64,000 nucleotides of DNA from Clostridiales bacterium (GTDB lineage: Bacteria > Bacillota > Clostridia > Lachnospirales > WRAX01), in assembly GCA_031265685.1 (NCBI GenBank), contig JAISCI010000102.1, positions 339 through 64,338 on the forward strand. The letters are read 5' to 3'. The stretch's first letter is position 1. Each line of letters starts with the position of its first letter. Shown one piece after another: positions 10,771 through 40,885 of the stretch. The position numbers and the translations under genes were made by a program. The notes under the pieces were generated by a model, which saw only the letters and a program-made list of their open reading frames with translations, had not been told where the DNA came from and did not search any database.

Positions 10771-10771
10771 C

Positions 10772-11107: not shown

Positions 11108-11216
11108 TGAGGCCACGGAGTGAAGCGCGCCTCACCCGCGTTTCCGTTTTGGCTCCCAGTTGCTCGAAAGATACCGCTCGTTGCCTTTGCGCCCTTCGCG
11201 CCATTGTGCAGCAAGG

Positions 11217-11305: not shown

Positions 11306-11394
11306 AGTGGCGCAAGCCCCACGCCGAGGCTTGCTGCGGTTATGGTCTTACCCACGCCGCCTTTTCCCATGTCAATAAAGATTGTTTTGCCCAT
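11293..11394 (-). pseudogene. ParA/MinD-type ATPase, N-terminal 29-33 codons only
   Basis: GGAGGA-N7-ATG, then MGKTIFIDMGKGGVGKTITAASLGVGLAPLKFA-stop. It has the deviant Walker A KGGVGKT. The reading frame runs into the repeat at 11217..11305, which supplies the last codons and the TGA. Confidence 0.6.
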
Positions 11395-11770
11395 TATGGT
11401 TTCCTCCTTCATTTTCGGGGCAAAACTTTTAGCGTTTCAGCCCCATTTTGGTTCGGGAATAGAATGGAAAAAGAATAATGCCAAACCCGCAAACCCTTGA
11501 TATTGCTGGGTTCTTGGATTTAGCGTTATTATGCCATAAGGGCGGCCAAAAAGCGCGGCGGTCAGGCAAGTGGCGGAAATGTCGAGCGGCAAATGCATCT
11601 GTCTGTATTGCGTAAACGGATTTATGTTGTCTATGAGAGCGTTCCGTATGTATGATTGTTAATCGCGCATATGGAACGTTTTTTCATTCATCCGACAGCG
11701 AAAAAAGTTGTTACTACGCGTAAAAATTTTTGAAGCTCTTGATAAACGTTTACGGCGACTCCCCATTAAC

Positions 11771-20889: not shown

Positions 20890-21537
20890 TCAGTCCAGGC
20901 CGGACAGAAGGCTGTCGGCGCTGTTTTTCGCCGCTCCCACCGACTCGGCGGGGCGGCGGGGCGACTCTCCGATTGAACCGGCGGGCGCGCCGTCCGGTAC
21001 CGCTCCGCGCTGACGCTGCGCGGCTGCCAGCAGACGGTTGCGGCTCGTGTCGCTCTCCTGCGGACGGCGGATTGGGCGCGGCTGACCGCCGACCGCTCCC
21101 GCCGTCTGCTTGGGCGCGGGCCGCGGCGGAGCGGCAGCCTCTTTCGGCGGCTCGGCGAAACGGTCGAAGAACGCTTCCAGCTCGTTTATCTTTTTGAGAA
21201 CTACGTCGAAGTCCTCCGACCTTACCCTGTGCATATATTTGTCCAGCAGCTGCGTGTATTCGCGGTGAAACTCGTTGAGGAGGGCGCGCTGAGTCGAAAC
21301 GGACGCGCGTATCTCGTTTACGTGCTGCAACGCGTTTTCGCGGATCGCCCGCGACTCGTTCTTGGCGTTCAGGATGATGCTGTCGGCGGCGATCTGCGCG
21401 TTGAGGATCGCGTTGCGAATAGAGTTGTCTTTTTCTTTATAGCTTTTCAGCTCGCGCTCCAGCGTCTCGATATAGAGATCGGTTTCCTCGGGGTCGTATC
21501 CCCGCTTGACATAGCTGAACCTGTCCGTCATAAACAC
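20890..21537 (-). CDS. DivIVA-domain protein
   Basis: 215 aa. FSYVKRGYDPEETDLYIETLERELKSYKEK is the DivIVA N-terminal domain, followed by a coiled coil and a Pro/Ala-rich tail. Confidence 0.85.
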   Translation of the reverse strand: MFMTDRFSYVKRGYDPEETDLYIETLERELKSYKEKDNSIRNAILNAQIAADSIILNAKNESRAIRENALQHVNEIRASVSTQRALLNEFHREYTQLLDKYMHRVRSEDFDVVLKKINELEAFFDRFAEPPKEAAAPPRPAPKQTAGAVGGQPRPIRRPQESDTSRNRLLAAAQRQRGAVPDGAPAGSIGESPRRPAESVGAAKNSADSLLSGLD

Positions 21538-21645: not shown

Positions 21646-22119
21646 ATGCGTGATAAATTTTTCATGTCTCTCGCTTTGGCCGAGGCGCGGGCCGCCGCCG
21701 CCGCCGGCGAGACGCCCATTGGCTGCGCGATAGCCTTCCGGGGGCAGCTGATCGCCCTGGGGCGCAACACGCGCAACGCCGCGAAGAACGCCCTGGGACA
21801 CGCCGAGATAGCCGCTATCGGCGCGGCGTGCGCCTTTATGGGCGACTGGCGACTCGAGGGGTGCGAGCTGTTCGTGACGGCAGAGCCTTGCCCGATGTGC
21901 GCCGGGGCGATCATTCAGGCGCGGATACCGCGCGTCGTATTCGGCGCGGCGAATAAAAAAGCCGGCTGTGCCGGCTCCGTGATCAATATCCTCGACTGCC
22001 CCGGGTTTAACCACCGCTGCGCGGTCGCGGGCGGAGTGCTGGAGTCGGAGTGCTCCGCGCTGATGACGGGATTTTTCACTGACTTCCGCCGCCGAGCGAG
22101 CCTTCAAGCTCCGCGATGA
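21646..22119 (+). CDS. tadA: tRNA adenosine(34) deaminase
   Basis: 157 aa. HAEIAAI and PCPMCAGA zinc motifs. The 3' end overlaps the convergent gene 22076..23425 by 44 nt. Confidence 0.9.
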   Translation: MRDKFFMSLALAEARAAAAAGETPIGCAIAFRGQLIALGRNTRNAAKNALGHAEIAAIGAACAFMGDWRLEGCELFVTAEPCPMCAGAIIQARIPRVVFGAANKKAGCAGSVINILDCPGFNHRCAVAGGVLESECSALMTGFFTDFRRRASLQAPR

Positions 22120-23425
22120 GCGCGGTCAGCTCGTCCTCGGACATGTCTCTGGTCAGTTCATCCCAGTATTTGTCAGCGTCGCTGTCGCTCATATTATCCC
22201 AGTCCATGCCGCCGAGAGGGGGTATCGCGGCGGGTTCCGCAACCAAGCTGTCCGTCAGGCCGGACGCGGGATCCTCGCGGTACCGATCGGCGGAGAAATC
22301 CTCCGATAAGTCTTCCGCGCCGCCGGAGAGAGCGTCCGTCCAATCGCCGCCGAAGCTCTCGTCCGGCATGTCCGCCTGAAACCCGTCATAGACGCCGGGC
22401 GCTTCCGGCTCGGGCGGGGCGGCGGGTTCCGCTTCGGTATACAGCGCTTTTGGGTCATAATCATCATAATCGTCGTAACTCTGATAGCCGTAGTCGTCGA
22501 GCGGGGCTGTATCGTCCTCCGGGGCGGCGCTTATCGGCTCGTCCCAGTCGAGAAGAGGACGCCCGACGCCGGAGAGCGGCGGTTCCGCCGGAGGAGACGC
22601 CTCGAGCCGGGCGGATGGCGGCTCGTCCCAGTCGAGCGACAGGCCGGACACGGCGGCCACCGCTCTCGCCGCGGGTTTCGGCGTCGCGGGCGGGCGGCTC
22701 AGATCCAGATTACTCAAGCCGTCCGAATTATCCAGATTATACAGATCGCCGAACCGACCGCTCTCGCGGGACGCGCCGCGCGGAACTATATCGTCCTCCG
22801 GGGCGGCGCTTATCGGCTCGTCCCAGTCGAGAAGAGAACGCCCGACGCCGGAGAGCGGCGATTCCGCCGGAGGAGACGCCTCGAGCCGGGCGGATGGCGG
22901 CTCGTCCCAGTCGAGCGACAGACCGGACACGGCGGCCACCGCCCTCGCCGCGGGTTTCGGCGTCGCGGGCGGACGGCTCAGATCCAGATTATTCAAGCCG
23001 TCCGAATTATCCGGATTATACAGATCGCCGAACCGACCGCTCTCGCGGGCCGCGCCGCGCGAAACTTTCCGATGGCCAGTCTCATCCTTCTGCGCTTGGG
23101 AGCGCCCTGTGGAACCTTTCGCGCCGACGCGTTTCACCACGCCCTTGATCGTCAGCCCGCCCGTCGCGATCAGCATAAGGTTGAACGCCGGAAACGCGAA
23201 TACGGATATCGCGAAGATGGCGGGCAGCGCCGCCGCCGTCCGGATCGCGTTATCCGCGATGACAATCCCCGCCTGGCCCAGCGCCGAGCCGAGCGCCGGG
23301 ATTTGCAGCAGGTACGACAGCCCGTAAACCAGAGCCAGCAGCACGCCCGACGACACCGCCAATGTCAGCGACATCAGTATATATGAACCCAGTCCCATAC
23401 GTTTTATAGAAAATTTCCCCTTCAT
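22076..23425 (-). CDS. membrane protein with a long acidic, Trp-rich disordered tail containing a 93-aa tandem duplication
   Basis: 449 aa. The N-terminal ~100 aa are hydrophobic (2-3 TM helices). The tail carries LDWDEP x4 plus MDWDNM, GDWTD and KYWDEL. Confidence 0.7.
   Translation of the reverse strand: MKGKFSIKRMGLGSYILMSLTLAVSSGVLLALVYGLSYLLQIPALGSALGQAGIVIADNAIRTAAALPAIFAISVFAFPAFNLMLIATGGLTIKGVVKRVGAKGSTGRSQAQKDETGHRKVSRGAARESGRFGDLYNPDNSDGLNNLDLSRPPATPKPAARAVAAVSGLSLDWDEPPSARLEASPPAESPLSGVGRSLLDWDEPISAAPEDDIVPRGASRESGRFGDLYNLDNSDGLSNLDLSRPPATPKPAARAVAAVSGLSLDWDEPPSARLEASPPAEPPLSGVGRPLLDWDEPISAAPEDDTAPLDDYGYQSYDDYDDYDPKALYTEAEPAAPPEPEAPGVYDGFQADMPDESFGGDWTDALSGGAEDLSEDFSADRYREDPASGLTDSLVAEPAAIPPLGGMDWDNMSDSDADKYWDELTRDMSEDELTALIAELEGSLGGGSQ
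22510..23062. repeat. tandem duplication, 2 x 279 bp, inside the CDS
   Basis: The unit starting tatcgtcctccggggcggcgcttatcgg recurs exactly 279 nt (93 codons) later, at 22510 and 22789. The encoded copies differ at 7 of 93 residues. Confidence 0.9.
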
Positions 23426-24070: not shown

Positions 24071-26140
24071 CTATAACCGGATCAGCTCCGCTATGCTCAT
24101 AGCAATACTATCCAATATATCATAAAACTTATCATTCAGATCGTAATACTTCCCGTCGGGCTTCGTCAGCGGGTCGTAGGATTCGATCGACTCGCGATCC
24201 TTCCGCGCGACTACGTAGCACGTCACGCCGTTTTCGCGCAACATATCGCGGATATCCTCGACCGAGCGGCCCGAGCGCGTCGGCACGTGCGGCGGCGCGT
24301 CGGTTATCAGTATAAATATCGCGCGTTCGCCCGGGGCGCTCTCCGACGAGCGCAGCAGACCGACCGCCGTCTCCAGCGCATCCAGCGACGATTCGGGGAT
24401 GTCGCCGCCGTATGTGCGCGGGATGTTTTTCACCTGTTTCTGGAACTTTTCCACGTCCGACGTGAAGCTGTATACCGAGGGCTTCTCCTTCTCGTACAAG
24501 TCGCCGAAACCGATCAGCCCCAGACTGGCGCCCGCTCCCTTGCCGCGCACTATCTCCGAGAACTCGATCGCGCGCTCCTTGACGCCGTTAATATATGTGT
24601 CCATGCTGCCCGTCGTGTCGATGACGAACACGATCCTGACGCTGCCGATGCCGGACGGTCGGCGCGGCGGCGCGGACGTCTTCGAGCGGTCAAACATCGC
24701 CCGTTCGCTCCGCCCGGTGGAAAGGTCGCGCACGTATACCTCGAACAGGTTGTCGGCGGAGATGGCGTAGGTTATCTCCAACTGCGTCGTGCCGCGCAGA
24801 CCGCCGAACTCGACGCTGCCGATATACTTGCGCTCGGCCTCGGCGCCCGCCGCCCACTGGTACACGTCCACGCTGACGGTCGTAGCCCCGGACATAGACG
24901 CGAAGTTGGAGTCCGAAAAACTGGACGGGATCTGGCTGCCCATCGGGATGATCGGTATCAGCGACTTCTCGCGCGTTGCGATATTGGTTACGGCCTCGGT
25001 GCCGAATATCTGCCGCGTTATCTGACCGACGGACACCTTGCGCTCGGGCAGGTGGATCAGGTAATTGTATATCGCCGCGCCCATCGCGACGCTCTTCGCC
25101 GGGTCGGTCGCGCGGTAGGGATCCTTCAAAAGCCCGGCCACCATACGTCTCACCATCGGGATGAGCGTCGATCCGCCGACGAGTATAACCTTCGATATAT
25201 CGTCCGCGTCGCGCCCCGAACGCTTAAGCGCTTCCGTGACAATCTCTCGGCTGCGGTCGATATACTTGCGTATCATGGACTCGAATTCCTCGCGGGTTAT
25301 CTCCAGCGAAAGGCTCTTCGGCTCGCCGCCCACGATGACGAGCGGGCTTACGCGCACCACGGCCTTGCTCGTTCCGGAAAGCTTCTTCTTCGTCTCCTCG
25401 GCGACTGCCTTTAGTTTCTGGAGGACGCGCCGCGCGTCGGCTCCGGGCAGATCGCTTAAGTCGATGCCTTCGGATTCCATGAACTTCGTCTTGAAGTGGC
25501 GTATCAGCTCGGAATCGAAATCGTCGCCGCCCAGTTCCATATCTCCGACGTCGGACAGTTCCTGGAAAATTTCCTGTCCGCTTTCGTCCTTCGATACTTT
25601 GAGCACGCACGCGTCGAACGTTCCGCCGCCAAGATCGTAAACGAGTAACGTCTGCGCCAGCCCCTGCCGGTAGCCATACTCGATCGCGGCGGCCAGCGGC
25701 TCGGAAAGCAGGTGGACGGTCGCGAACCCTGCCAGCAGCCCCGCCTGCCGCGTCGCGTATATCTGTCGGTCGTTGAAATACGCCGGGTGCGTTATAACTA
25801 CCTCGCCGAAGGCCTCGCCGGACGCTTCCTCGGCGGCGGCCTTGAGCCGGCGCAGTATGTCCGCGCTAACTTCCTCGGGGGTTTTGCGGACCGCTCCCAG
25901 TTCCAGCGCCTCGCCCGAACCCATCCGCCGCTTGACGGATATGACCGTCGATTCGGGGTAGATGATCGCGCCGGACTTCGCCTCCTCGCCGACGATAACG
26001 GATCCGTCCTCGGCGTAATGGACGACGGACGGAAGTATCTCCGAGCCGTCGATGGGAACGGCGGCGACGCCGTCCGTCCGGTCGCTGTAGATAACGGCGC
26101 ACGAGTTTGTCGTGCCCAGGTCGATGCCCAAGTATCCCAT
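24071..26140 (-). CDS. Hsp70-family ATPase fused to a C-terminal von Willebrand factor A domain
   Basis: I trimmed the track ORF to the ATG at 26140 (AGGAGA RBS), giving 689 aa. Motifs are LGIDLGTTNSCAV, VYDLGGGTFDACVL and ILVGGSTLIPMV. An SBD-beta is present (VSVDVYQW...LEITYAISADNLFEVYVRD) but no helical lid. The vWA domain has a MIDAS motif (VFVIDTTGSM ... ILITDAPPH). Confidence 0.85.
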   Translation of the reverse strand: MGYLGIDLGTTNSCAVIYSDRTDGVAAVPIDGSEILPSVVHYAEDGSVIVGEEAKSGAIIYPESTVISVKRRMGSGEALELGAVRKTPEEVSADILRRLKAAAEEASGEAFGEVVITHPAYFNDRQIYATRQAGLLAGFATVHLLSEPLAAAIEYGYRQGLAQTLLVYDLGGGTFDACVLKVSKDESGQEIFQELSDVGDMELGGDDFDSELIRHFKTKFMESEGIDLSDLPGADARRVLQKLKAVAEETKKKLSGTSKAVVRVSPLVIVGGEPKSLSLEITREEFESMIRKYIDRSREIVTEALKRSGRDADDISKVILVGGSTLIPMVRRMVAGLLKDPYRATDPAKSVAMGAAIYNYLIHLPERKVSVGQITRQIFGTEAVTNIATREKSLIPIIPMGSQIPSSFSDSNFASMSGATTVSVDVYQWAAGAEAERKYIGSVEFGGLRGTTQLEITYAISADNLFEVYVRDLSTGRSERAMFDRSKTSAPPRRPSGIGSVRIVFVIDTTGSMDTYINGVKERAIEFSEIVRGKGAGASLGLIGFGDLYEKEKPSVYSFTSDVEKFQKQVKNIPRTYGGDIPESSLDALETAVGLLRSSESAPGERAIFILITDAPPHVPTRSGRSVEDIRDMLRENGVTCYVVARKDRESIESYDPLTKPDGKYYDLNDKFYDILDSIAMSIAELIRL

Positions 26141-26167
26141 ACCAATTCTCCTGTCTGTTAAAGCTCC

Positions 26168-26338
26168 GCGCCAATCTCCATTTAAGAATATAGAAAAGAT
26201 TTTCAAGTCCGCGCCTGAAGCAGGGTAATTTTCGCGTGATGAATTTTGCGCGGCTTACGCAAAATTCCATCACGCGAAAATGCGATCGAAACTCGTCCAT
26301 ACAAAAATTTACTTCCGCCAATCTAACGGAGATCAGTA
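26168..26338. repeat. family-A-like composite element with a long family-B hairpin (26227..26280)
   Basis: ccaatctccattt / gaaaagattttcaag / ... aattttcgcgtgatgaattttgcg cggctta cgcaaaattccatcacgcgaaaa ... / acggagatcagtat. It fills the whole gap between two Hsp70 genes. Confidence 0.8.
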
Positions 26339-27934
26339 TTACACCCGCGTCTTCTTCCCCCGCTGGGGCGTGAAGTTTCGCTTATAGCCGCCGCCGGCGT
26401 CCTCAACCATGCCGGAGACTACCCCGCCCTCCTCGGCGGCGGACAGCGTGATTCGCAGCCTTGTCCCGCCGCTGGGGCGCGGAGGAAGTCCCGTTACCTC
26501 TATGTCGCCGATCAGCCGGCAGTCCTCCACGGGATCGTCCCGGTTGATCCGCTCCAGAACGCGCAGATCGAAACGCGTCATGTCTTCGGGGCGGCTTCCG
26601 GAGAGCGTGAACACGGCGTCTTTGCGCGCCAGAGCGTAAGGCGTGCCGCGCCGGATCAGCGTATAGAAAACCTTTTTCGCGCCGTTTGTCACCTCCAGCC
26701 CGATGTCGTGCGGAACGCTGCCGGAGAACGCAACGGCGCGGCGCTCGGCGGAGAACTCCCGCCCGGCGAGAAGCCCCATCTTCATCGCCGCGTAGTACGC
26801 CGCGCCGACCGATATGTCCAGCGCGGGGCGCTCGGACTGATATATCTTCGATTCGTCGCCGAACACGCCGTTCAACATATCCCGCACCCAGGGCGCGGCC
26901 GACGATCCGCCCTCCAACAGCACGCGGCTGATGTCCCCGGGAGCCAGAGCGCCCTTGTACGCGCCGCGCAGCGCCTTTTGCGTAAGCTGACGCGTCTTCT
27001 CGATAAACGCCGCCGCCAGTCCCTCATAGCGCTCGCGCGTCAGGTTCTCGATAAACGGCGGTATCATAAACGTGAACGGCACGCGGAACGACTTCGCGCC
27101 CGAGAGCCGTTCCTTCGCCTCGCGCGCGCGGATCTCCACTTCGGCGCGGTTTTCCGGGACGATCGATTCGCGGGTCTGGCCGGTTTTCGCCTCTATCCAG
27201 TCGTAGCACTGTTCGGTAAGAATAGCGTCGAGCGCGTCTCCGCCGTGGGCCGCGTCTCCGCCCTCGGATATGACCGTCAGCCGCGTCAGTCCCGGCGGTT
27301 CCTCCGTCACGCTGAAAACGGTTATATCGAGCGTGCCGCCGCCGAAGTCGAACACCAGCACGCGCTCGCCGTCCTCAAGCTCGCGCTTGAAATTCATAGC
27401 GAGCGCGGCGGCCTTCGGCTCCTCGATCAGGCAGATCAGGCCGCCGCCCAGCCCCGCCAGCTCGCAGGCGCGGATTGTCGCCTTCTTCGCGGCGTCGTCG
27501 AACCCATAAGGCACTGATACGACCAGTCCGGCTATCTCGGCTTTCGGGTTTATCGCTCGCGCGCGCGACGCCAGTTCTTCCAATATCTTCGCGGATATTT
27601 CCTCCGGCGCGTAGTCCTTGCCGCCCAGCCGGAACGTCTTGTCCGTGCCCATATACCGCTTCGCCGAACGCACCGTGGAATCGGGGTACAGCTTTATCGA
27701 GCGGTAGGCCTCCTCGCCGACGACCCACTCGCCGCCGTCGCGCCACTGCACAACGGAAGGCAGCGGTATCTTGCCGAACCCGTCCGAAACGTCGATGGTT
27801 TCGGGCGCGCCGGACGACGGCGAATAATAACTGACGACGGAGTTGGTCGTGCCTAAGTCTATGCCGAGCACGAACCAGTCCTCGGGCAGGGACCCGCGCC
27901 GGTCTATATCTTTTTTGCAATCTTCCCACTTCAT
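26339..27934 (-). CDS. Hsp70-family ATPase, lidless paralogue
   Basis: 531 aa. LGIDLGTTNSVVSYY, VFDFGGGTLDITVF, LLEGGSSAAPWV. It ends just after the beta-sandwich SBD. Confidence 0.85.
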   Translation of the reverse strand: MKWEDCKKDIDRRGSLPEDWFVLGIDLGTTNSVVSYYSPSSGAPETIDVSDGFGKIPLPSVVQWRDGGEWVVGEEAYRSIKLYPDSTVRSAKRYMGTDKTFRLGGKDYAPEEISAKILEELASRARAINPKAEIAGLVVSVPYGFDDAAKKATIRACELAGLGGGLICLIEEPKAAALAMNFKRELEDGERVLVFDFGGGTLDITVFSVTEEPPGLTRLTVISEGGDAAHGGDALDAILTEQCYDWIEAKTGQTRESIVPENRAEVEIRAREAKERLSGAKSFRVPFTFMIPPFIENLTRERYEGLAAAFIEKTRQLTQKALRGAYKGALAPGDISRVLLEGGSSAAPWVRDMLNGVFGDESKIYQSERPALDISVGAAYYAAMKMGLLAGREFSAERRAVAFSGSVPHDIGLEVTNGAKKVFYTLIRRGTPYALARKDAVFTLSGSRPEDMTRFDLRVLERINRDDPVEDCRLIGDIEVTGLPPRPSGGTRLRITLSAAEEGGVVSGMVEDAGGGYKRNFTPQRGKKTRV

Positions 27935-27935
27935 A

Positions 27936-29381
27936 TTATATTGTCTCCAGTTTTACTTTTGTCCGCGCCGACCCGCCGGCGGACGGAAACTGCTCGCCGA
28001 ACCCGACGTCCCGGACGGCGACGTCCAGCGTGTCGGCCGCCGAAAAAGCCAGCGACACGCCAACGACAGTCGTCCCCGCGGGACGTCTCGGAAGGCCGGT
28101 CAGCGTCAGATCAGTCAGTTTCACGCCGTCCCGCCCGCCCGAATAAATCTCGACGACCGGCGGCGCGTCTGTCGGCTCGGTCAGCAGAAATGTTCCTTCC
28201 GGGAATTTATCCCACCAATACGCCCCTTCCGGCGCTATCGGGAAGAACCGCGCCGCGTTCCCCGCGCGCACGCGCACGCCCACTCCGCGAGAAAGGCGGT
28301 TAACGTCTCGCAGTTTCGGAAAGGCGGGCGCCAGACCCAGCCCAGCCGCCGCTATCAGACACGCACCCTCGGCCAGAGCGACGGCGGGAACCTTCGGGCA
28401 GATAAGCTCCGCGCGCGGGAACGCCTTTGCCGCGGCCGCCCTCGCGAACGGGTACTCAAACCCGCCGCCCATAAGACATACCGCCGAGACCGCGGCGCGC
28501 TCCCCCGCCGCCGTGACCGCCGCTCTGATCCCCTCGGCGAAAGGTTTTGTCACGGCACGGATATCGGCGTCGCGGGCGGTCATCGCGAAAGGCGGGTACG
28601 CGAAAGATACGTAGAGTTTCACGTCCTTGGCGGACTGCCTCCCCAGAAGCAGCCGCCGGTGCGAACGGCAGAACCGCTCAAGCTGACGGACGTCCCGCGC
28701 GGAAGGCTCCCCGGCGGACTTCTCGTATAGTCCGGCCACAAAAGAGTCGGCCGCCCTGCCCAGAGCGTCCGCACCCAGATCGGGGTACGACACGCTCGAC
28801 AGGCAATCCACAAACCCGCCGCGCCTCTCGTACAGCCCGACGCGAAACGCCCCGGCTCCGAAGTCCGCGATAATGGTCGGCTGGCCATCACGCCCCGCGA
28901 GCAGCCGGGCGGCTGCGCATTCCCGAGCGTCGCGTATGTCCGCGAGCGCGGAGCCGTATCCGGCGTGGACGAACGCCGCGCGAAGATCCTCGGCGGCGGC
29001 GGCCGGCCAATCGGCGGGGGACGCCGCCACTATCGCCTCGACGCCGGCTTTCGGATCCGCGCCTTTCACGAAAGCGATCATGTCGCGGATATATTCGCCG
29101 GTTATCTCGCGTATCGGCGTAGGGCGGCCCCCGGCGCTTGCGTACTCTCCCTTGCCCAGTCGCTCGGGAAGACGCGTAAAAACCGCGCCGTCTTCTCCGC
29201 CGGAGAGCGCGTATTCCCCGAACACCCATTCGCCGTTCGCGTATTCGACCACCGTCGGAGAGGACGGCACACCGTACCCTCCGGATATGTCCACCGCGGC
29301 GGCCTCGCCGCGGACGGCGTCGTAATACGCCACGGCGGATGAATCCGCTCCGATGTCGATCCCGAGAACGAACCCGCTCAT
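27936..29381 (-). CDS. Hsp70/actin-fold protein with degenerate nucleotide-binding motifs
   Basis: 481 aa and colinear with the neighbouring Hsp70s, but GIDIGADSSAVAYY replaces GTTNS, ADFGAGAFRVGLY replaces DFGGGTFD, and CLMGGGFEYPFA replaces the adenosine motif. Confidence 0.7.
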   Translation of the reverse strand: MSGFVLGIDIGADSSAVAYYDAVRGEAAAVDISGGYGVPSSPTVVEYANGEWVFGEYALSGGEDGAVFTRLPERLGKGEYASAGGRPTPIREITGEYIRDMIAFVKGADPKAGVEAIVAASPADWPAAAAEDLRAAFVHAGYGSALADIRDARECAAARLLAGRDGQPTIIADFGAGAFRVGLYERRGGFVDCLSSVSYPDLGADALGRAADSFVAGLYEKSAGEPSARDVRQLERFCRSHRRLLLGRQSAKDVKLYVSFAYPPFAMTARDADIRAVTKPFAEGIRAAVTAAGERAAVSAVCLMGGGFEYPFARAAAAKAFPRAELICPKVPAVALAEGACLIAAAGLGLAPAFPKLRDVNRLSRGVGVRVRAGNAARFFPIAPEGAYWWDKFPEGTFLLTEPTDAPPVVEIYSGGRDGVKLTDLTLTGLPRRPAGTTVVGVSLAFSAADTLDVAVRDVGFGEQFPSAGGSARTKVKLETI

Positions 29382-30169
29382 CTTGCCGCTATGACGTTCG
29401 CGCGGACCAGCGCCTTATCGCCCTCGCGCCAGCCGCGCCCGCATACCGCGATTATCTCGCCGCGCTTTCGCTCCGGGTGCGGCTCGGCGGCCAGCGCCAC
29501 GTGCCAGCGTCCGGAGAACATCTCTCCCGGCTGCGGCTCGACTGGGAATATACCCGCTTCGGCCAGCAGTCTCTCGATTCCAAGCGACGTGCCCGCGCAA
29601 AGGCCCGCTAGCTTCCGGGCGGCGGGATCGCCGGACTGCGCCAGGCGCGGAACGGAGTAGTACATCATCTCGTCGAAGGTGGACACCTCGAACAGCAGCG
29701 CGTCTTTCAGGAAAGCCGCGCGGGATTTTTCCGCCGCCGCGAGTACGCGCGCTCGCTCGGCAGCGCGTTTCTCACGGATCAGCTTCGCGGAGCGCCCGTC
29801 CGGCGAGGTTATGGGCGAAACGCCTTCCAGCGTCTTTTCGGAAGCTTCGCGCGCACCCTCGGCGGACTGGCGCAGACTGTCCGCCTTGATGGCTATGGCC
29901 TCCGCGACGCCCCGCGCGATTGTTTCGGTCTCGTTGGTGAATTCGGCGGACGACACGAAAGCCGAAACGCCGTCGAGCAGTTCCGCGAAAGCCAGCGCCA
30001 TGTCGGCGGGCTTCGCGAGCAATCGCGCCGCGTCGGCGAGCGTCCGGCGATAGTCCGCGTCCCAGCGGGAGAAGGCGGATTCCCTCGCGCGGAACCTGCG
30101 GGCTTCCTCCGCCGCGCGCCGGTTCTGGTAATGGAGTTTTAAGCGCTCATGTTTTTCTCTGGATGGCAT
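29378..30169 (-). CDS. GrpE-like nucleotide exchange factor
   Basis: I trimmed the track ORF to the ATG at 30169 (GAGGGA RBS), giving 263 aa. A long helical N-terminal part is followed by a C-terminus LLAEAGIFPVEPQPGEMFSGRWHVALAAE...GEIIAVCGRGWREGDKALVRANVIAAR, which follows the GrpE beta-domain pattern (G-x-x-x-I-x-x-x-G-x-x-FDP-x-x-H-x-A...G-Y...R-x-A-x-V). Confidence 0.6.
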   Translation of the reverse strand: MPSREKHERLKLHYQNRRAAEEARRFRARESAFSRWDADYRRTLADAARLLAKPADMALAFAELLDGVSAFVSSAEFTNETETIARGVAEAIAIKADSLRQSAEGAREASEKTLEGVSPITSPDGRSAKLIREKRAAERARVLAAAEKSRAAFLKDALLFEVSTFDEMMYYSVPRLAQSGDPAARKLAGLCAGTSLGIERLLAEAGIFPVEPQPGEMFSGRWHVALAAEPHPERKRGEIIAVCGRGWREGDKALVRANVIAAR

Positions 30170-30177
30170 TTTATCCC

Positions 30178-31860
30178 TCAATACAGATCGTCCACAGTCA
30201 GTTCCGTGACCAGCCCGCCCGCCGACAGCGATTCCGCCATGACGCGCAGCATGTTGTCCTGCCCGACACTGAACACGACGCGCACGCGCTCTTGCCCCTT
30301 CGGTCCCTGCGGTATCCCGCGGAGGCTCGTGCCCGAGAGCCGCTTCATGCCGTCGCGGTAGACGTAATCCGGCGAGCCGTCCGTCGCGGGCGCGGTGTTT
30401 TCGTATACGACTATCGCCATGCTGGACAGGTTGTCGAAACCGGTCGTCAGCGTCTCGGGGCATTCCACCGTGAGGCCCTCGGGCGGGATGTCCATGCCGG
30501 AATCCACTATTTTAAGGAATCGTCGCCCATGAAGCTCCAGCCCCAGCGGGTGAATCGTTCTCTCTTTGACCTTGACGATGGGTTCCGCTATGTCGGGCAT
30601 CATGATCATTTCGCAATAAACGGCCGCCCCGCGCGAGATAGAGAGGGCGGGGCTGACCTTGGACTTATACGGCGCCCTGCCGAACTTCTCCTCGACGCGA
30701 TTGGCCGCGAGCGGTATCGCCGAGCTTCCCCCGACGAGGAACACCTCGTCGATGTCCCCGGCGGAAAGCCCTGCCGCCTCGAGACATTTATCAACGCATG
30801 CCAGCGTGGAATCCACCATGTCCGACAGAGTCTTTCCCTCAAACTTCCCAAACGAAACGTCGTCCTGACCCAGGCGGTTGACGCGCGCGTGCGTCTCGAG
30901 CTGTTCGCGGGTTATTTCCATATTTATGCTGACGACGATTGGTTCCTGCAGGAACGGGCTGAGCGTGACCTTGGCGCTCTTCGCCTGACTGAGCCGTTCC
31001 TTGGCGACGTTCGCGGCCTGGCGCAGACGCGCCTGAGCCGTCTTTTTCTGACGCCTCGACACGCCGTCGTCCACTTGCTCGTCGAAGATGTCTATTTCGC
31101 CGTTTGTAAGGTTCTTGAACTCTTCGTAAATAATATCCATGACCAGCGCGTCCGCGTCGTCGCCGCCCAGCCGGTTGTCGCCGTAGGTGGACGCTACCGA
31201 GATGACCGGCTCGTCGCCGGGTTTCGCGTCTATATCGAGTATGCAGGCGTCGAACGTTCCGCCGCCAAAGTCGTATATGAGGACCTTCTTGGCGGAGGAT
31301 TCGCCGATGGCGTAGCTGATCGCGGCGGCGGCGGGTTCAAGCCGAAGATACACGCTGTCCTCGTCGAATCCGGCGAGCACGGCGGCCTCTTTCGTCACGC
31401 GCTTCTGCTTGTCCGTGGAATTGGCGGGCACGGTTATAACGCAGCCCGAAAACTCGCCCGGTATGCCCAGTTCTTCCCGCGCGTACTCGTCGGCTTTGCG
31501 CTTCAGGCAGCCGAGTATCTCCCCGGCGATCTGCGCCGGCGTGAAGGCGTGTTCCTCGCCGCCCGCCTCGACTACGATTTTTTCGTCCGAACCCAGCAGT
31601 CGCTTCACCGAAAGCACCGTGGACGCCGGGAATATCGCGGCGGCTTCCTTCGCTTCCGCGCCGAACACTCGGGAGAGCTTGCCCGGCTCGTCCGGGTCCG
31701 GCTCGAACTGAACCGCCGTCGGGAAGATATTGGCGCCGTCGATAGGGATAGTCTGCGCCTCCCCATCCTTAAAGTTAAATATGCTGACGACGGAGTTGGT
31801 TGTGCCGAAGTCCACGCCGAGATACAGCCCCCGCGCCGTGTCGAGACCGATTGTTCCCAT
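30178..31860 (-). CDS. Hsp70-family ATPase, lidless paralogue
   Basis: 560 aa. LGVDFGTTNSVVSIF, IYDFGGGTFDACIL, FLVGGSSAIPLA. It ends just after the beta-sandwich SBD. Confidence 0.85.
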   Translation of the reverse strand: MGTIGLDTARGLYLGVDFGTTNSVVSIFNFKDGEAQTIPIDGANIFPTAVQFEPDPDEPGKLSRVFGAEAKEAAAIFPASTVLSVKRLLGSDEKIVVEAGGEEHAFTPAQIAGEILGCLKRKADEYAREELGIPGEFSGCVITVPANSTDKQKRVTKEAAVLAGFDEDSVYLRLEPAAAAISYAIGESSAKKVLIYDFGGGTFDACILDIDAKPGDEPVISVASTYGDNRLGGDDADALVMDIIYEEFKNLTNGEIDIFDEQVDDGVSRRQKKTAQARLRQAANVAKERLSQAKSAKVTLSPFLQEPIVVSINMEITREQLETHARVNRLGQDDVSFGKFEGKTLSDMVDSTLACVDKCLEAAGLSAGDIDEVFLVGGSSAIPLAANRVEEKFGRAPYKSKVSPALSISRGAAVYCEMIMMPDIAEPIVKVKERTIHPLGLELHGRRFLKIVDSGMDIPPEGLTVECPETLTTGFDNLSSMAIVVYENTAPATDGSPDYVYRDGMKRLSGTSLRGIPQGPKGQERVRVVFSVGQDNMLRVMAESLSAGGLVTELTVDDLY

Positions 31861-31872: not shown

Positions 31873-34800
31873 TTAGAGTAGTATCGCCCTGGCCCGCGGG
31901 ACAGGCGAGAGAGCCTTTTCGGCGGAGCGTTCGGCAAGCTCCTCCCGCCCGCGCGCGAGATGAACCGCGGCGTCGTTGACGGCCTGCCAGCCGCCCTCGC
32001 CAAGCCCAAGCTCCGCCTTCGCGACGGCAAGCGTCCGGCTGGCGGTCTCGGTTTCCCCGCCCGCACCGCGCTCGACGAACCGATACCTGATCCTGTCGCC
32101 GTGGAACGCGCGGATATTCGCGGCATACACGCCGAAGCGGACGTATTTCGCCGGGACGCCGCGTTCGGGGCCGCCCGCCGAATACACCAGGGAGACGTTC
32201 CTCCCGCGCCGCCCTCTGTGCTCAAGCGGCTGGTTTTCCTCTATATACGGCGTCCGCGCGGATTTGTCTTTGATCGTTTCCAGTGCCGGCGGGATAACGC
32301 CCAGTTTTTCGGCAGTGGCCGCCGCGCGCGCGACGACCTCGCCGGACGGCTTGACACCTCTGGCGTATACCGCGCAGAGAGCGAAAACGGTCGTATCTTC
32401 CGGATCCGCCCCGGACAGGCAAAGGCCCTCCAGCGCCGCTACCGCTTCCAGCGCGGGTTCCAGACCGTCAAGCTCAATCCCCCTGCACAGCGCCGCCGCG
32501 TATGCCCGGACATGAGCCGATTTCGCCGCCCGCGGCGCTTCCCGCGCGAACGCCGCCTGAGCCGCCCCGGACATATCACGCGTCAGCGCCGCCGAATCCA
32601 GTATCTCCCTGTCGAGCGCGGCGGAGCCGCCGCCAGCGCGGATCGCGGCCTCGGCCAGCCGAGCCATGTCCGCGACACTGCCCGCGCTGCCGGCGGCGGC
32701 TTTCGCCACGCCCGCGTCATACCATCCGCCCAGCGTCAGCTCGCGGCAGACCGGCCCTATCACGGCGCGATCCGCCGCCGACCCCGACCCGGCGACAGCT
32801 CTCGCCGCCGCGAACTTCGTCTCGTCGTCAATCGCCGGAGATTTGGACGCGAGCAGCTTCGCGAGGCGCTCCATGTCGCCCGCCGCCGCCAGCGCCGCGG
32901 CTATAGGCGCCGCGAACACCGCCGGAACGCTTCTCGCGTCCGTCCCGGCGTATCTCTCCGCCGCTTCCGCCGTCAGTCCCGTTTTGGCGAGCAAGCCCGC
33001 CGCCGCCGCCGAAACCGCCCGCAACAGTTCGGGCGAGAGCGAGGGTTCTCGCAGAGCTTTCGTCAGCATCGACAGTTTATTGGCGGCCGATATGCCGCGC
33101 GTCCGGGGATCGTCGTCTATGATCCCCTTGGAGAGCGCCGCGAGCAGTCTCGGCGACGGGTTGCCGTCCAGAAAAAACCGCGTGTACAGACGTATCCCAG
33201 CGTTCTCGATCATGCGGACAGCCGTGAATCCGCCGCCGGCGGCCGCGCCCGCGCCGTCCAGAAACGCCGCCGAAAACCCGTGCCCCGCGGCTTCCGCGAC
33301 ACATGACGTGCCCGAGAAGGAGTAGTTTTCGGGAGCCGCCATCAGCGGGTCAAATACGCGAACCTGCCGAGCGGACTGATCCGCCGGCGACAGGCGGAAG
33401 CGGAACAGGTTGTCGCGCACAAGCCGTTCGGCCTTCTTATACAGCGGCGACGACCTGTCCGCGACGTCGAGGTAGAACGCGTACGCGCTCAGGAAGTATC
33501 GTCCCGTTTCGCCCGCCGTCAGCGACCGCTCGGCGAATTCCGCGATCCGGCGCGTCAGCGGGCCGACCGCCTGCTGGTTCTCGGGGCGGGTCAGCATCAG
33601 ATGGAACACGAAAGCGTCGTCCGCTCCCTCGGCGTACTCGCGCAGGGCGGCTGGCGGTACGTCCGGAACGGCCCGCCGCCGCGCCGACGTTATGACGGCG
33701 GCCGAAAGACCGGGTATGCTCAGGCCGGCGTTCAGCGCCGTGACATAATACCGGTAGGCCCGCTCGGAATAATCCGCCCGCGTGAGCGCCGACGAGCACA
33801 GCGCCGCCAGCAGCGACCGCTCCGGATACCGCCGGTAGACGCTGTCGGCGGCGGCCGGAGTCATGCGCGCCGCTATCGCCGCGCCATACATTCGGACGGC
33901 CCTCGAAATGTCCCGCCCCTTGGCCGCGCCCCACGCGACGGCTCCGAGAAAGAGCGAACGTCCCGGCGCGCCCGATATGTCCGTGTCCGGATCGGCGGCG
34001 CAAAGACAGTCGCACGCGCAATCAAGGAGCCGCCTCGAACGCTCCCCCAGCGCGAACGCTTCCGCGAGCGCCGCGAAGCCGCGAGCCGCGCCAAACGCCG
34101 TGAACGCCGCCATTCCCGCGTATGACGATTCGGACGAGCGAGCGAGCCGCCCCGCCTCGCGCCGCGCGGTGAACATCGAACCGCCGTCGGCCGCCGCGCG
34201 GCACCGCAGATATACGTACCGCGCCCATTCCTCCGGCGCCGTCTTTCTAAGCCGCCGGTCGCGCTTCGCGGCGGATTTGAGCTGCAGCCGGGCGCTCTCA
34301 AGTAGCCCGGCGGATATGTCGCGTTCTATCGTGTCGAGCGTGTCGGGCGGGATCGGGCTTTTGAGCTTAATCGACACGGCGACGCGCGTTACCCCAGCCG
34401 GGGTGATCAGATCGACGGCAGCTTCGGCCTCGGTCGTCTTACGCCCAAGTTCCGGCGCGACGGTGAACGGTATGCCCGCCTTGTCCGCGATGAGGTATCG
34501 CCGCGCCGAGAACCTCGTGAGCCGGTCCCTCGGCGCCGCCTCGACGAGCATGTCGCGGCGCGTCGAGTTGACGACGATTATCGAGCCGGATTCGCCGGGC
34601 GCGTATGTCTCGCGGTCCGTCCGCGCGGAGAGCGACCGGCGCCGCGCCGCCATGATCGTAACGCCCGAGCCGTCCGACAGATTGACGCGGGCGGCGGCGA
34701 AGCGCGATTTAAGCAGCCCGGGATATATGATGAAGCGTTTTTCGGCAAAGCCGTCTTTCGAGAAATCCGACGGCGAGACGACCGGTTCCAGCAACTTGAG

Positions 34801-35412
34801 CCACGGCGCGTCCGCGGTCAGCTTATCCGACGCGACGCCCCAGCCATTGAGACGCAACGGAATAACCCCAGTCGCCGAATCGGTCTCACCGGGATTGAAC
34901 TCGAAACGCAGCAGCCGTTCCGTGGGCGCGACGGCGGCGCGTTCCTTAAACCCCGACGTCACAAGGAAGCTGTCCAGTCCCTCGGCGCCGCCCCGCCGGA
35001 ACCGCTCGTACAGATCCATATGCCTGAAACCAATCTTTTGCAGCCACTCGCGGAACGTTTCCGCGCCGAACACCCTGGCAGCCCCGGCAAAGTCCGACCG
35101 GGCGTAATCGGCGAACTCGCCGACGGAACGGCAGCGCGTACCAGTCAAGACCGCGGAAGGGTCCCCCAAGACGCGCACGCGGCCCTCGCCGCCGCTCGTG
35201 ATCAGCGACACCGAAGCGGTCTCCGCCCCGGAACCGCCCCGATACGTCACGGCGACGCGGCAGTCTCCGTCGAACTCCGCCGGGGAGACGGTTATCCCGG
35301 GCGAATCGGCGGCGATCCCGCCAAACAACCGCCCTGTTCCGGCGTTTGTGATAGAAAAGAAGGCGGTGTCGCCCGCCCCTGACAGCCTGACTTCGCGGAG
35401 AGACAGCCGCAA
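31873..35412 (-). CDS. 1179-aa protein of unrecognised family (three N-terminal beta-rich modules plus ~800 aa Ala-rich helical region)
   Basis: Continuous ORF with coding-like composition. The track start is TTG at 35412. The frame stays open 19 more codons upstream (TTEAEYERVIDVLEDGKPE) with no canonical start codon. No HPD/J-domain, Walker or other motif is recognisable. Confidence 0.7.
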   Translation of the reverse strand: MRLSLREVRLSGAGDTAFFSITNAGTGRLFGGIAADSPGITVSPAEFDGDCRVAVTYRGGSGAETASVSLITSGGEGRVRVLGDPSAVLTGTRCRSVGEFADYARSDFAGAARVFGAETFREWLQKIGFRHMDLYERFRRGGAEGLDSFLVTSGFKERAAVAPTERLLRFEFNPGETDSATGVIPLRLNGWGVASDKLTADAPWLKLLEPVVSPSDFSKDGFAEKRFIIYPGLLKSRFAAARVNLSDGSGVTIMAARRRSLSARTDRETYAPGESGSIIVVNSTRRDMLVEAAPRDRLTRFSARRYLIADKAGIPFTVAPELGRKTTEAEAAVDLITPAGVTRVAVSIKLKSPIPPDTLDTIERDISAGLLESARLQLKSAAKRDRRLRKTAPEEWARYVYLRCRAAADGGSMFTARREAGRLARSSESSYAGMAAFTAFGAARGFAALAEAFALGERSRRLLDCACDCLCAADPDTDISGAPGRSLFLGAVAWGAAKGRDISRAVRMYGAAIAARMTPAAADSVYRRYPERSLLAALCSSALTRADYSERAYRYYVTALNAGLSIPGLSAAVITSARRRAVPDVPPAALREYAEGADDAFVFHLMLTRPENQQAVGPLTRRIAEFAERSLTAGETGRYFLSAYAFYLDVADRSSPLYKKAERLVRDNLFRFRLSPADQSARQVRVFDPLMAAPENYSFSGTSCVAEAAGHGFSAAFLDGAGAAAGGGFTAVRMIENAGIRLYTRFFLDGNPSPRLLAALSKGIIDDDPRTRGISAANKLSMLTKALREPSLSPELLRAVSAAAAGLLAKTGLTAEAAERYAGTDARSVPAVFAAPIAAALAAAGDMERLAKLLASKSPAIDDETKFAAARAVAGSGSAADRAVIGPVCRELTLGGWYDAGVAKAAAGSAGSVADMARLAEAAIRAGGGSAALDREILDSAALTRDMSGAAQAAFAREAPRAAKSAHVRAYAAALCRGIELDGLEPALEAVAALEGLCLSGADPEDTTVFALCAVYARGVKPSGEVVARAAATAEKLGVIPPALETIKDKSARTPYIEENQPLEHRGRRGRNVSLVYSAGGPERGVPAKYVRFGVYAANIRAFHGDRIRYRFVERGAGGETETASRTLAVAKAELGLGEGGWQAVNDAAVHLARGREELAERSAEKALSPVPRARAILL

Positions 35413-35512
35413 TTCCGGCTTGCCGTCCTCCAGGACGTCTATAACGCGCTCATATTCGGCTTCGGTCGTCTAGATCACTCCGTTTCTAGAGGCTAGAAGC
35501 AAGAAAAACCTT

Positions 35513-38638: not shown

Positions 38639-40885
38639 TCAGAACATATCCCTTTCCATCAGACCTACGGCCATCTCGGCGTTGCGCCGCGCGGCCACCC
38701 GCGACCGCTCGGCGTAGCTCATCAGAGCCGACGAGATCGCCGCGCGGTTGAAGATAATGTAATCGGCGCAGGCGCGCAGCTTCTCGCCGTCGATCGCGCG
38801 CGCGTCCACGCAATAGGGCTGATTCGCGCCCTCCATCACCGCGCGGACTTTCGGGTCGTAAACCACGCCGATTGGCGGCGTACCGACGCTGATAGCGTAG
38901 ATAACGGAGTGCAGCCGCATCCCGACCACGAACGCCGCGCCGCGGATCAACTCGAGCGTCTCCCCGACGGATCGCGCGCCAAGGTACGCCCCGCCGCCCC
39001 GGACTCTCGCCGCCACGCGCCGTGAGACGGTCTCGTCGTTCTCAGGCTGCATCGGGATAAATAACGGAGCGAGGCCGTGCTTGAGTTTGCAATATTCGCA
39101 GAATTCCGATATCTCACGCTCGAAAGTTTCCGCTTCGACGCCTTTCAGGTATTTCCATGAACGGATCGAGACGAGGAAGTATCCGCCGGGTTTCAGTCCC
39201 AGTTCGGTCAGCTTCGCCGCCGCGGCGTCCGCGTCGCCGTCACGGGGCAGTATACCGAACGCCGCATCCGCCGTCACGGCCGATTCCGGGACGGTCACGC
39301 CGAGCGCTTCAGCTTCGCGCGCCGAATCCGCGTCGCGCAGCGTAATGAGATCGACGGCGTTCAGCGTCCGGCCCGCGCGCCTGCGGTTCTTCTCTCTCCG
39401 AACGGGTCCTATGCCGTTCGCGTACATCATAACCGCCGCCCCGCGCCGCTTCGCGAGACGGATTACGTACAGATAATACAACAGCGACTGCGTACTGGTT
39501 ATATCCTGAATCAGACTGCCGCCGCCGGATACAAGCACGTTGGTTTCCGCCATCAGCCTGGACAGCTTGAACACGTTGAACCGGAACACCGTGCTGACGC
39601 CGTATTCCCGCGCCGTTACGCCCGGCCTCCTGGAGAGCACCACGGCGTTCAGATCGGGCTTAAGAGCGCGAAGGTCGTCCAGAAGCGCTTTCAGCACCGC
39701 GTCGTCGCCGTTGTTGTTGAAGCCGTAGTATCCGGAGACGACCGCGTCCACGGGGCGCGACGATTTGAGCACGCGTTCGTACAGCGCCAGAGCGTCGTCC
39801 GCCATGCGCGACGAATCGTACAGCTTCCTTACAATGTCGCGGCCGTACCGCGATAACCGGTCCGCCTCTCCAGTCGGCATACGCAGCAGCGTCAGTATGT
39901 CCGTGCGCAGGCTCTTCTGGTCAAACGGAGCGCAATCTCGGCACGTGAAGTTCGTCGCTATAGCGCTCGGCAATTTATCCTCGCCGAATATGCCGAGCGA
40001 CCCAAAGTTTCCGGCAAGGATCACGCGTTTCCCGGATGACATGGCCTCGAGCGCCGCCCGGCTGATCGCGACGGCTATCTCCGCGTTCGCGACGATACGG
40101 TTCACGTCCACGCGCGGCCCCGTCATAATAATGGCTTTCGTCTCGAGACGGGCGTTTATATTCTGCGCCGCCTTACGCAGGCTCTCGGCTTCCGTTCCGC
40201 CGCCGACGACGACCAGCTCGATCTTCGGCACGAGCTGATGAAGCTCCTCCACGCATTGGAGCAGCGCGTACGCCACCGAACAATTCCCCTTGTCCAGACG
40301 GCTGACGTACACAATGCGGCGTTTATCCTTAGCCAAGCCAAACTCCAGCGCCACCCGCGACCCGTCCGTGCCGGGAGAGAATTTCTCCGTGTCGATGCCG
40401 TTTATCGTTATGTCTATGCCGTCTTCCGGCACGCCGTAATTGCTGGCGAGATAAGTTTTCAGATCCTCGCTCACGGCGAGCTGTTTTTCGCCCCAGTTTG
40501 ACAGCAGTTTCAGCAATGGGCTGATGTAAAACTCGCAGTGGCACGTGGTGACGAAACGGAAGTGCAGGCGCTTTTGGAGCATTCCGCACAAAAAAGCCGG
40601 AATCCGCGCGTGGGCGTGGACAAGTTTGATGCCGTTCTCCCGGATGATCCGCTCCAGCGCGAAATAGCTCGCTATCATGCTGCGCGGTCCGCGGCTGTTG
40701 AGCGGAACGGTGAAATGCCTGATCCCCGCCGCCTCCAGTTCGGGGACGTACGCGCCGCCTTTGGACGCGACGTAAACGTCCGCGCCGCGCGACTTCAGGC
40801 TTTTCGACAATTCCAGAACGTGGGTCTCCGCGCCGCCGATCTCCATGCCTTGAAGCGCCATCAGCACCTTGAAATCCGTTTTCAT
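38639..40885 (-). CDS. fusion of GT4-type glycosyltransferase and CsaB-type polysaccharide pyruvyl transferase
   Basis: 748 aa. The N-terminal half is GT-B/GT4-like (MEIGGAETHVLELSK...). The C-terminal half reads VVSGYYGFNNNGDDAVLKALLDDL, the CsaB pyruvyl-transferase signature. Confidence 0.75.
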   Translation of the reverse strand: MKTDFKVLMALQGMEIGGAETHVLELSKSLKSRGADVYVASKGGAYVPELEAAGIRHFTVPLNSRGPRSMIASYFALERIIRENGIKLVHAHARIPAFLCGMLQKRLHFRFVTTCHCEFYISPLLKLLSNWGEKQLAVSEDLKTYLASNYGVPEDGIDITINGIDTEKFSPGTDGSRVALEFGLAKDKRRIVYVSRLDKGNCSVAYALLQCVEELHQLVPKIELVVVGGGTEAESLRKAAQNINARLETKAIIMTGPRVDVNRIVANAEIAVAISRAALEAMSSGKRVILAGNFGSLGIFGEDKLPSAIATNFTCRDCAPFDQKSLRTDILTLLRMPTGEADRLSRYGRDIVRKLYDSSRMADDALALYERVLKSSRPVDAVVSGYYGFNNNGDDAVLKALLDDLRALKPDLNAVVLSRRPGVTAREYGVSTVFRFNVFKLSRLMAETNVLVSGGGSLIQDITSTQSLLYYLYVIRLAKRRGAAVMMYANGIGPVRREKNRRRAGRTLNAVDLITLRDADSAREAEALGVTVPESAVTADAAFGILPRDGDADAAAAKLTELGLKPGGYFLVSIRSWKYLKGVEAETFEREISEFCEYCKLKHGLAPLFIPMQPENDETVSRRVAARVRGGGAYLGARSVGETLELIRGAAFVVGMRLHSVIYAISVGTPPIGVVYDPKVRAVMEGANQPYCVDARAIDGEKLRACADYIIFNRAAISSALMSYAERSRVAARRNAEMAVGLMERDMF

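Follow-up and report, generated by a model that had tools for sequence, protein, structure and literature searches.

The window analysed here is a 64,000-nucleotide (nt) stretch of contig JAISCI010000102.1 in GCA_031265685.1, a metagenome-assembled genome (MAG) of an uncultured Clostridiales bacterium. On its minus strand, ahead of a set of Hsp70-related genes, lies an open reading frame (ORF; 31873..35412) that encodes 1179 amino acids (aa) when read from a TTG codon at 35412. A first-pass annotation had considered the architecture of this protein unrecognised. However, it matches Pfam PF18984 (DUF5717_N) with 59 bits against a gathering cut-off of 25 (E 2.7e-16) and, at residues 930-1182, PF18983 (DUF5717 C-terminal) with 38.6 bits against a cut-off of 25 (E 9.4e-10). 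NCBI already carries it as "MAG: DUF5717 family protein [Clostridiales bacterium]". The gene belongs, in a fused form, to the DUF5717 family, which is catalogued but unstudied; no paper on DUF5717 was found in the literature searched. The first-pass annotation had held that assignment to a characterised family would count against its view of the protein, and the family found is an uncharacterised one.

To place the gene within its family, an exhaustive phmmer search was made, which recovered 311 homologues, none above 37% identity. Most are of two types, one of ~390 aa that covers residues ~10-340 and one of ~900 aa that covers residues ~400-1195 (residues are counted in the extended frame described below). 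PF18984 is matched by 58 of 58 N-module sequences. Among the best 150 of the 311, 63 measure 340-440 aa (mostly N-modules, with a few C-terminal fragments) and 70 measure 800-1000 aa; only three in this set are fused, namely the query protein, P0016 and P0066. N- and C-modules are separate adjacent genes in 14 of 14 GTDB loci and in 3 metagenome contigs, and in several loci their reading frames overlap. In one GTDB contig (L003) a masked N/X run lies between the two genes (~10183-11439), so that the gene spacing there is uninformative. The fusion of two normally separate genes had been overlooked in the first-pass annotation; judged from these sequences, the three rare fusions would argue that both halves act as one unit.

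Upstream of TTG 35412 the frame remains open for 19 codons (TTEAEYERVIDVLEDGKPE), bounded by a TAG at 35472-35470. Read directly, these codons include no ATG, GTG or TTG; the near-cognates among them are ACG 35469-35467, ATA 35442-35440 and CTG 35433-35431. The first-pass annotation had described this start-less stretch, the TTG and the GGAGGA 13 nt before it, all of which the sequence bears out, and both peptides that it quoted are found in the translation. Of 37 long ORFs in the window, 8 end in TAG, so this codon is a real stop here. Recoding or readthrough of the TAG was dropped as a candidate on the same count and on the lack of a Shine-Dalgarno (SD) sequence at GTG 35478.

The first-pass annotation had also remarked that the start-less stretch resembles real protein, and family comparison agrees. 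A profile of 57 homologues, built with the query sequence left out, aligns from residue 9 of the extended frame, and the 19 upstream residues add 6.4 bits to the profile score, a gain reached by 2 of 500 shuffles. Homologue N-termini follow the pattern M-x(3-12)-[FL]E[YQ]P[LP]P-x-L, with which VLEDGKPEL aligns here, its last L being the TTG codon. E14 and P18, both upstream of the TTG, sit in columns at least 90% conserved in the family alignment, and residues 3-14 form a helix in the AlphaFold model, with a predicted local distance difference test (pLDDT) score of 79-86. Each of the 14 related loci has a canonical start codon 4-12 codons 5' of the motif, and most of these starts are preceded by a recognisable SD. 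The orthologue alignment that the first-pass annotation had called for therefore shows relatives starting upstream of the TTG-equivalent position, with conservation entering the start-less codons. By these comparisons, chance hardly accounts for the protein-like character of the upstream stretch.

This has consequences for how the gene is annotated. The start chosen by Prodigal and IMG, TTG 35412, removes the conserved helix and motif. PGAP (NCBI MDR1210081.1) starts 28 codons further downstream, at TTG 35328, which gives 1151 aa and loses the invariant N42 and G44, and this start is certainly too short. Three pipelines thus give two starts, neither of which includes the conserved N-terminus, and both are forced choices of callers limited to canonical start codons. 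Callers restricted to ATG, GTG and TTG silently truncate genes with a mutated or non-canonical start.

Immediately 5' of the TAG lies an extended SD, AGAAACGGAGTGATC, in which 12 of 15 positions agree with the complement of the 16S 3' tail. The anti-SD duplex that it forms, at -15.6 kcal/mol, is the joint strongest of ~25 starts examined in the window, and only 0.23% of random 20-nt windows attain this value. Confident genes of this organism have GGAGG-type SDs at an aligned spacing of 7-8 nt, which is also the mode in the window, and the aligned spacing to ACG 35469 is 7. For TTG 35412 the corresponding values are -9.3 kcal/mol, reached by 6.5% of random windows, and an aligned spacing of 14; the GGAGGA before it is merely the L-E-D codons of the conserved motif. 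A duplex-energy scan finds no SD before ATG 35453, ATA 35442, CTG 35433 or GTG 35478. The position indicated by both homology and ribosome-binding site (RBS) thus lacks a canonical ATG, GTG or TTG: 35469-35467 is ACG, which differs from ATG by one transition. The first-pass annotation had overlooked this strong SD, and with it the pointer to ACG 35469 as the initiation site. As the SD is at optimal spacing for ACG 35469 and the conserved N-terminus begins there, the native start is most likely the first codon after the TAG, 35469, carrying an ATG>ACG change. Coordinates of these and the other features are collected in Table 1.

Table 1. Features of the DUF5717 gene and its surroundings, in window coordinates except for the last row
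Feature	Coordinates	Strand	Details and basis
DUF5717 coding region	31873..35469	-	1198 codons, ACG (35469-35467) to stop TAA (31875-31873); translation, Pfam, homologues
Extended Shine-Dalgarno AGAAACGGAGTGATC	35473..35487	-	GGAG core 35481-35478, 8 nt before ACG
In-frame TAG	35470..35472	-	closes the frame immediately 5' of ACG
ACG, proposed native initiation codon position	35467..35469	-	first codon after TAG, modal SD spacing
18 codons after ACG, without canonical start, TEAEYERVIDVLEDGKPE	35413..35466	-	include E14 and P18 of motif [FL]E[YQ]P[LP]P
Out-of-frame ATG (MSAL*)	35451..35453	-	SD duplex -1.4 kcal/mol; position where most homologues have Met
TTG picked by Prodigal/IMG (1179 aa)	35410..35412	-	GGAGGA 35431-35426, 13 nt upstream
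Beta-sandwich 1, ASH/PapD-like, residues 20-102	35164..35412	-	invariant N42-x-G44; AlphaFold, Foldseek
Five-helix bundle, residues 116-171	34957..35124	-	AlphaFold
Beta-sandwich 2, residues 179-276	34642..34935	-	AlphaFold, Foldseek
Beta-sandwich 3 and fusion linker, residues 280-369 (sandwich 280-337)	34363..34632	-	N-module gene ends here in most relatives
Alpha-solenoid arm 1, residues 375-687	33409..34347	-	AlphaFold; Foldseek gives generic TPR/HAT/HEAT scaffolds only
Small beta domain between solenoids, residues 690-752	33214..33402	-	AlphaFold
Alpha-solenoid arm 2, residues 759-1078	32236..33195	-	holds the family TPR signature, mapped through P0002
C-terminal beta-sandwich, residues 1079-1149	32023..32235	-	most conserved family part (Pfam DUF5717 C)
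Two terminal helices, residues 1160-1187, then tail RARAILL	31909..31992	-	AlphaFold
Hsp70_A	30178-31860	-	Pfam/NCBIfam
GrpE-like	29378-30463, or from 30181	-	Pfam/NCBIfam
DUF5716 pseudo-Hsp70	27936-29381	-	Pfam/NCBIfam
Hsp70_B	26339-27934	-	Pfam/NCBIfam
Hsp70-VWA	24071-26206	-	Pfam/NCBIfam
Transmembrane/coiled-coil gene in relatives	L004 8652-10001; L015 8552-10000; L011 6793-7920; L016 8722-10008; L018 8833-10008		contig coordinates

AlphaFold2 models of the two modules were built on family alignments and reached pLDDT 90.4 for the N-module and 90.6 for the C-module; the combined full-length alignment (A3) was not used for folding, as its N-modules are misaligned, with identity down to 9-16%. 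The three N-terminal beta modules proposed in the first-pass annotation correspond to the three sandwiches of the model, but the five-helix bundle inserted after sandwich 1 had been missed. Likewise, the ~800-aa part described there as helical is mostly so, except for two beta domains, one between the solenoids and one near the C-terminus. That annotation had further recommended a check for Ig-like or PapD-like folds in the first 350 aa, and Foldseek confirms an ASH/PapD-like fold: the top 22 PDB matches of the N-module are ASH-rich proteins of the ciliary central apparatus (E 6e-12 to 2e-7), and CEP192 SPD-2 (2e-6) and the PapD-like 2qsv are also found. Pfam models of the ASH/HYDIN type have no match to the query protein, and among 58 homologues Cep192_D6 and HYDIN_VesB_CFA65-like_Ig match one each (1e-5 and 0.037, respectively).

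For the C-module, Foldseek returns Ctr9, Ski3, IFT-A, Naa15 and transportin. At the sequence level, a family profile (A4) matches consensus TPR (2e-23 summed), LapB (4e-6) and HOP TPR2A (4e-4) at positions ~461-572. The query protein alone has no Pfam TPR match, while P0002 and P0016 have weak, sub-threshold ones. Searched alone against PDB sequences, the protein gave no match, and a profile search found no significant PDB relatives of the C-terminal beta domain. The absence of Walker, HPD and catalytic motifs reported in the first-pass annotation was upheld by our searches: Walker A is absent by regular expression and Pfam, no catalytic Pfam domain is present, and neither a motif search for HPD nor the DnaJ Pfam models give a match, HPD occurring in just 1 of 67 C-module sequences. 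DUF5717 C-termini carry a conserved basic-then-hydrophobic tail, [RK]x[RK][ILM][ILM]-COOH (RARAILL here, 31873-31900), which resembles an Hsp70 substrate-type peptide. This first structural description of the DUF5717 family, as ASH-like Ig domains joined to TPR-like solenoids, is the more valuable result of the analysis.

DUF5717 heads a conserved Clostridial cluster of seven to eight genes that includes multiple Hsp70s, GrpE and VWA. Its downstream partners span 24071..31860 on the same strand, and the same gene order is found in 14 GTDB loci and 3 metagenome contigs, as far as the contigs reach; no description of this multi-Hsp70/GrpE/VWA cluster was found in the literature. The first-pass annotation had called the gene the lead gene of an operon, which holds for its place at the head of the cluster. 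However, it begins only 43 nt past a preceding housekeeping gene, and its upstream same-strand neighbours are a trmK-like gene, NIF3 and a gene for a 553-aa protein with TGS-like and uridine-kinase parts. No promoter-like or terminator-like site was found in the 43-nt gap. Lying so close behind same-strand housekeeping genes, DUF5717 is not demonstrably first in the transcript.

In 10 of the loci with adjacent N- and C-module genes, the N-module is preceded by a gene of ~300-480 aa that encodes transmembrane and coiled-coil segments, has no Pfam match and overlaps the N-module start by 8 nt in called contigs. This gene is not present in the window, which indicates remodelling of the cluster at its 5' end in this genome. 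The 553-aa uridine-kinase-like protein was considered as its counterpart and found to be unrelated.

Several features of the neighbouring genes deserve mention. Hsp70_A and its orthologues (L002-L015), which share 65-69% whole-protein identity across families, end in TEL[ST]VD[ED]LY-COOH in 10 of 10 loci compared, an acidic-aromatic tail that recalls the TPR-docking EEVD tail of eukaryotes. The GrpE-like protein measures 267-361 aa here and 600-670 aa in relatives, lacks most of the long N-terminal region, and probably starts at TTG 30181, overlapping the Hsp70_A stop. The DUF5716 protein combines a degenerate Hsp70 nucleotide-binding domain (Hsp70 E 6e-4) with DUF5716_C; as Hsp70_B has a weak DUF5716_C match, DUF5716 is suggested to be a diverged Hsp70 paralogue. 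Just downstream of Hsp70-VWA, 22076-23425 (-) encodes a 449-aa membrane protein without a Pfam match that contains two near-identical acidic Pro-rich tandem repeats of ~110 aa (…SRESGRFGDLYN.DNSDGL.NLDLSRPPATPKPAARAVAAVSGLSLDWDEPP…). Elsewhere in the window are a DivIVA-domain ORF (20890-21537, -), a 748-aa protein in which a GT4 glycosyltransferase is fused to a polysaccharide pyruvyl transferase domain (38639-40885, -) and a three-tRNA gene cluster (59334-59585, +).

With ACG at the native start, protein would be made in one of two ways: either low-level initiation at the ACG itself, as a near-cognate codon helped by the extended SD, or synthesis of an N-terminally truncated product from TTG 35412. 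The choice posed in the first-pass annotation, between an unusual initiation codon and an N-terminus truncated by mutation, therefore stands and is refined to ACG 35469. The remainder of the 3.6-kb ORF is intact and all invariant family residues are kept, which implies either continuing expression or recent damage to the gene. The ACG may be a recent lesion, a tolerated weak start, a selected attenuator or a consensus base error. A genuine working start, read by initiator tRNA through the extended SD and holding the scaffold below its Hsp70 partners, is an unlikely version of this; if true, it would represent a natural ACG start in a bacterium, judging from the literature searched, and would extend attenuation by extended SD and weak codon from AUU and AUA in Firmicutes. 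In Escherichia coli, ACG initiates at ~0.1-1% of AUG and yields an N-terminal Met (bioRxiv 10.1101/063800). In Staphylococcus aureus and Bacillus subtilis, AUU and AUA starts come with strong extended SDs, and the AUA start of citZ is lineage-specific (PMC13009471).

As to function, the first-pass annotation had proposed a scaffold or a client, and the scaffold option would fit the ASH-like folds, the TPR-like solenoids and the absent catalytic motif. Because protein-binding folds and occasional fusion are combined with tight linkage to three Hsp70s, a pseudo-Hsp70, a GrpE-like exchange factor and VWA, and no catalytic motif is present, our best guess is that DUF5717 serves as a scaffold or adaptor, organising the Hsp70 paralogues or presenting their client. 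The tail of Hsp70_A or that of DUF5717 could mediate docking, of the TPR-tail type or between a substrate-binding domain and a peptide. Taken together, a fused DUF5717 scaffold/adaptor whose native start, 35469, is now ACG is the reading that we hold to be rather probable. Its significance would rise with ACG initiation or Hsp70 docking shown.

A number of points weigh against this combined reading. The literature searched yielded no natural ACG start in bacteria, and in bacterial reporters ACG serves as the "off" state. No relative above 50% identity appeared in any collection searched, so neither an ancestral ATG nor conservation of the ACG can be demonstrated: a word-based protein search returned the query itself only, a GTDB protein scan, a metagenome DNA-pattern scan and a metagenome protein scan gave no close relative, and the 90% identity cluster holds only the protein of the same contig, under three annotations. 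The out-of-frame ATG 35453 falls at the modal Met position of the homologues. Homologue SD energies range from -5.3 to -17.1 kcal/mol, so that -15.6 is not above all homologues; compensatory strengthening of the SD was accordingly dropped as an idea, the value being unexceptional within that range. The Logan assembly of SRR14710922 may come from the same reads as the MAG, in which case a base error could be shared. Finally, the scaffold role is drawn from folds and gene neighbourhood only, and the structural matches of the C-module are generic, all with TM-scores <0.3.

One alternative for the start is that TTG 35412 works as annotated and the 19 codons are an untranslated relic, left by loss of the start codon or by rearrangement behind the uridine-kinase-like gene; the protein would then function without its N-terminal helix and E-x3-P motif. 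TTG is canonical, has GGAGGA upstream and is the Prodigal/IMG choice, 19 stop-free codons are plausible by chance at 61% GC (our estimate), one homologue (P0149) seems to begin just past the motif, and the loss of the transmembrane/coiled-coil gene that overlaps the N-module start in relatives fits a remodelled 5' end. Yet the spacing of 13-14 nt is off the window mode, the duplex reaches only -9.3 kcal/mol and coincides with motif codons, the far stronger SD at 35473-35487 would be left without a gene, and E14 and P18 remain intact, so we rate this alternative as unlikely, though the most serious of those concerning the start. Folding of the mRNA, which might have shortened the distance from SD to TTG or marked the site, was examined and rejected, a 133-nt fold being no stabler than shuffles (z = 0.15). 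Less probable again is that the cell has ATG at 35469 (A rather than G at plus-strand 35468) and that the ACG arose either as an error of sequencing or consensus building, or because the MAG assembly captured a minority or strain allele; nothing biologically unusual would then be present. The source is indeed a metagenome-assembled genome, and a single transition gives a textbook RBS-ATG layout. Against this, the MAG and the Logan assembly are 100% identical across 14,858 nt with zero mismatches (14.9 kb, reads possibly shared), and substitution errors in Illumina consensus sequences are rare. Most doubtful of all is a frame lesion, either a 1-nt deletion or 2-nt insertion after ATG 35453-35451 (ancestral M-(x)-R-V-I-D-V-L-E-D-G-K-P) or a nonsense TAG in an extension from GTG 35478 or TTG 35502. 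Most homologues have their Met opposite E7, whose codon overlaps ATG 35453 by one base, and the modal homologue has M plus 5 or 6 residues before the motif; GTG-ATC-TAG and the upstream TTG are in frame. However, neither ATG 35453 (-1.4 kcal/mol) nor GTG 35478 has an SD, an out-of-frame ATG within a few codons has a chance of ~0.1-0.2 (our estimate), and an N-terminal extension from TTG 35502 would be longer than that of every homologue seen. A programmed frameshift from ATG 35453 was rejected as well: it needs a -1 shift, the sequence has no slippery heptamer for one, and the ATG frame, without an SD, ends after 4 codons.

The role of DUF5717 has its own alternative: the Hsp70s may have DUF5717 as their dedicated client or effector, or the whole cluster may be a conflict (defence) system built of NTPase, vWA and repeat proteins. 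DUF5717 evolves fast, with 21-26% identity compared with 63-69% for Hsp70_A and Hsp70_B, and modules of HSP70, GrpE and FNIII-repeat-TPR/DnaJ, with vWA proteins elsewhere in the class, occur in GTPase-centred conflict systems (PMC7159879). On the other side, no PADLOC match under 1e-3 was found for DUF5717 and the neighbours match marginally (E 3e-4 to 1e-3); a GTPase, effector or toxin domain is absent from the cluster in 18 loci; plasmid and phage collections hold no copies; and the chromosomal context adjoins housekeeping genes (hisS-aspS, trmK-NIF3). We therefore regard a client or conflict function as improbable next to the scaffold/adaptor role.

Compared with its own family, the protein has the length and domain order of the fused architecture spanned by the Pfam DUF5717 models (1181 positions) and the same Hsp70/GrpE/DUF5716 neighbourhood. 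It shares only 21-37% identity with other members, differs from most of them in being fused rather than encoded by two genes, and lacks a canonical start codon. For the start, the closest parallels are the extended-SD starts of Firmicutes (infC AUA, cvfC1 AUU, ccpN AUA and citZ AUA; PMC13009471), which share the strong extended SD, the proper spacing and a codon other than AUG, GUG or UUG, and for which the expected outcome is likewise attenuated initiation. The ACG here differs in being mismatched at the second position and is absent from the reported set.

At the level of fold, Foldseek ranks ASH/PapD/MSP-type Ig domains first (E 1e-11 to 1e-6), represented by the hydin-like 7som, 7sqc and 9ijj, CEP192 7ptb and Porphyromonas gingivalis 2qsv, and we count the family strand-turn motif N-x-G-G-G-x-L-x-G as a likeness of the ASH type. 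Identity to these proteins is, however, only 6-14%, and DUF5717 is cytoplasmic, bacterial and contains the inserted five-helix bundle. The nearest described analogue of the cluster as a whole is the HSP70/GrpE theme of the GAP1-N2 GTPase-centric conflict systems (Kaur, Burroughs, Iyer and Aravind 2020; PMC7159879), also from Firmicutes, which shares HSP70, GrpE, an extra HSP70-like protein without a normal peptide-binding domain and a beta-sandwich-repeat-TPR protein. In contrast to that theme, DO-GTPase and GAP1 were not found in the window cluster or in the related loci examined (including L016-L018), the repeats are ASH-like rather than FNIII, and three full Hsp70s and a VWA fusion stand in a housekeeping context. 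The TPR co-chaperone adaptors of eukaryotes (HOP/STIP1 TPR2A, CHIP and Sgt1) resemble DUF5717, as far as its sequence suggests, in that a TPR-containing helical scaffold is encoded beside Hsp70s. In DUF5717, however, the TPR signal covers ~3 repeats of ~630 helical residues, and the Hsp70s here are without helical lid and EEVD motif. If DUF5717 is a TPR-type adaptor for bacterial Hsp70 paralogues, it would form an interesting parallel to eukaryotic co-chaperone wiring.

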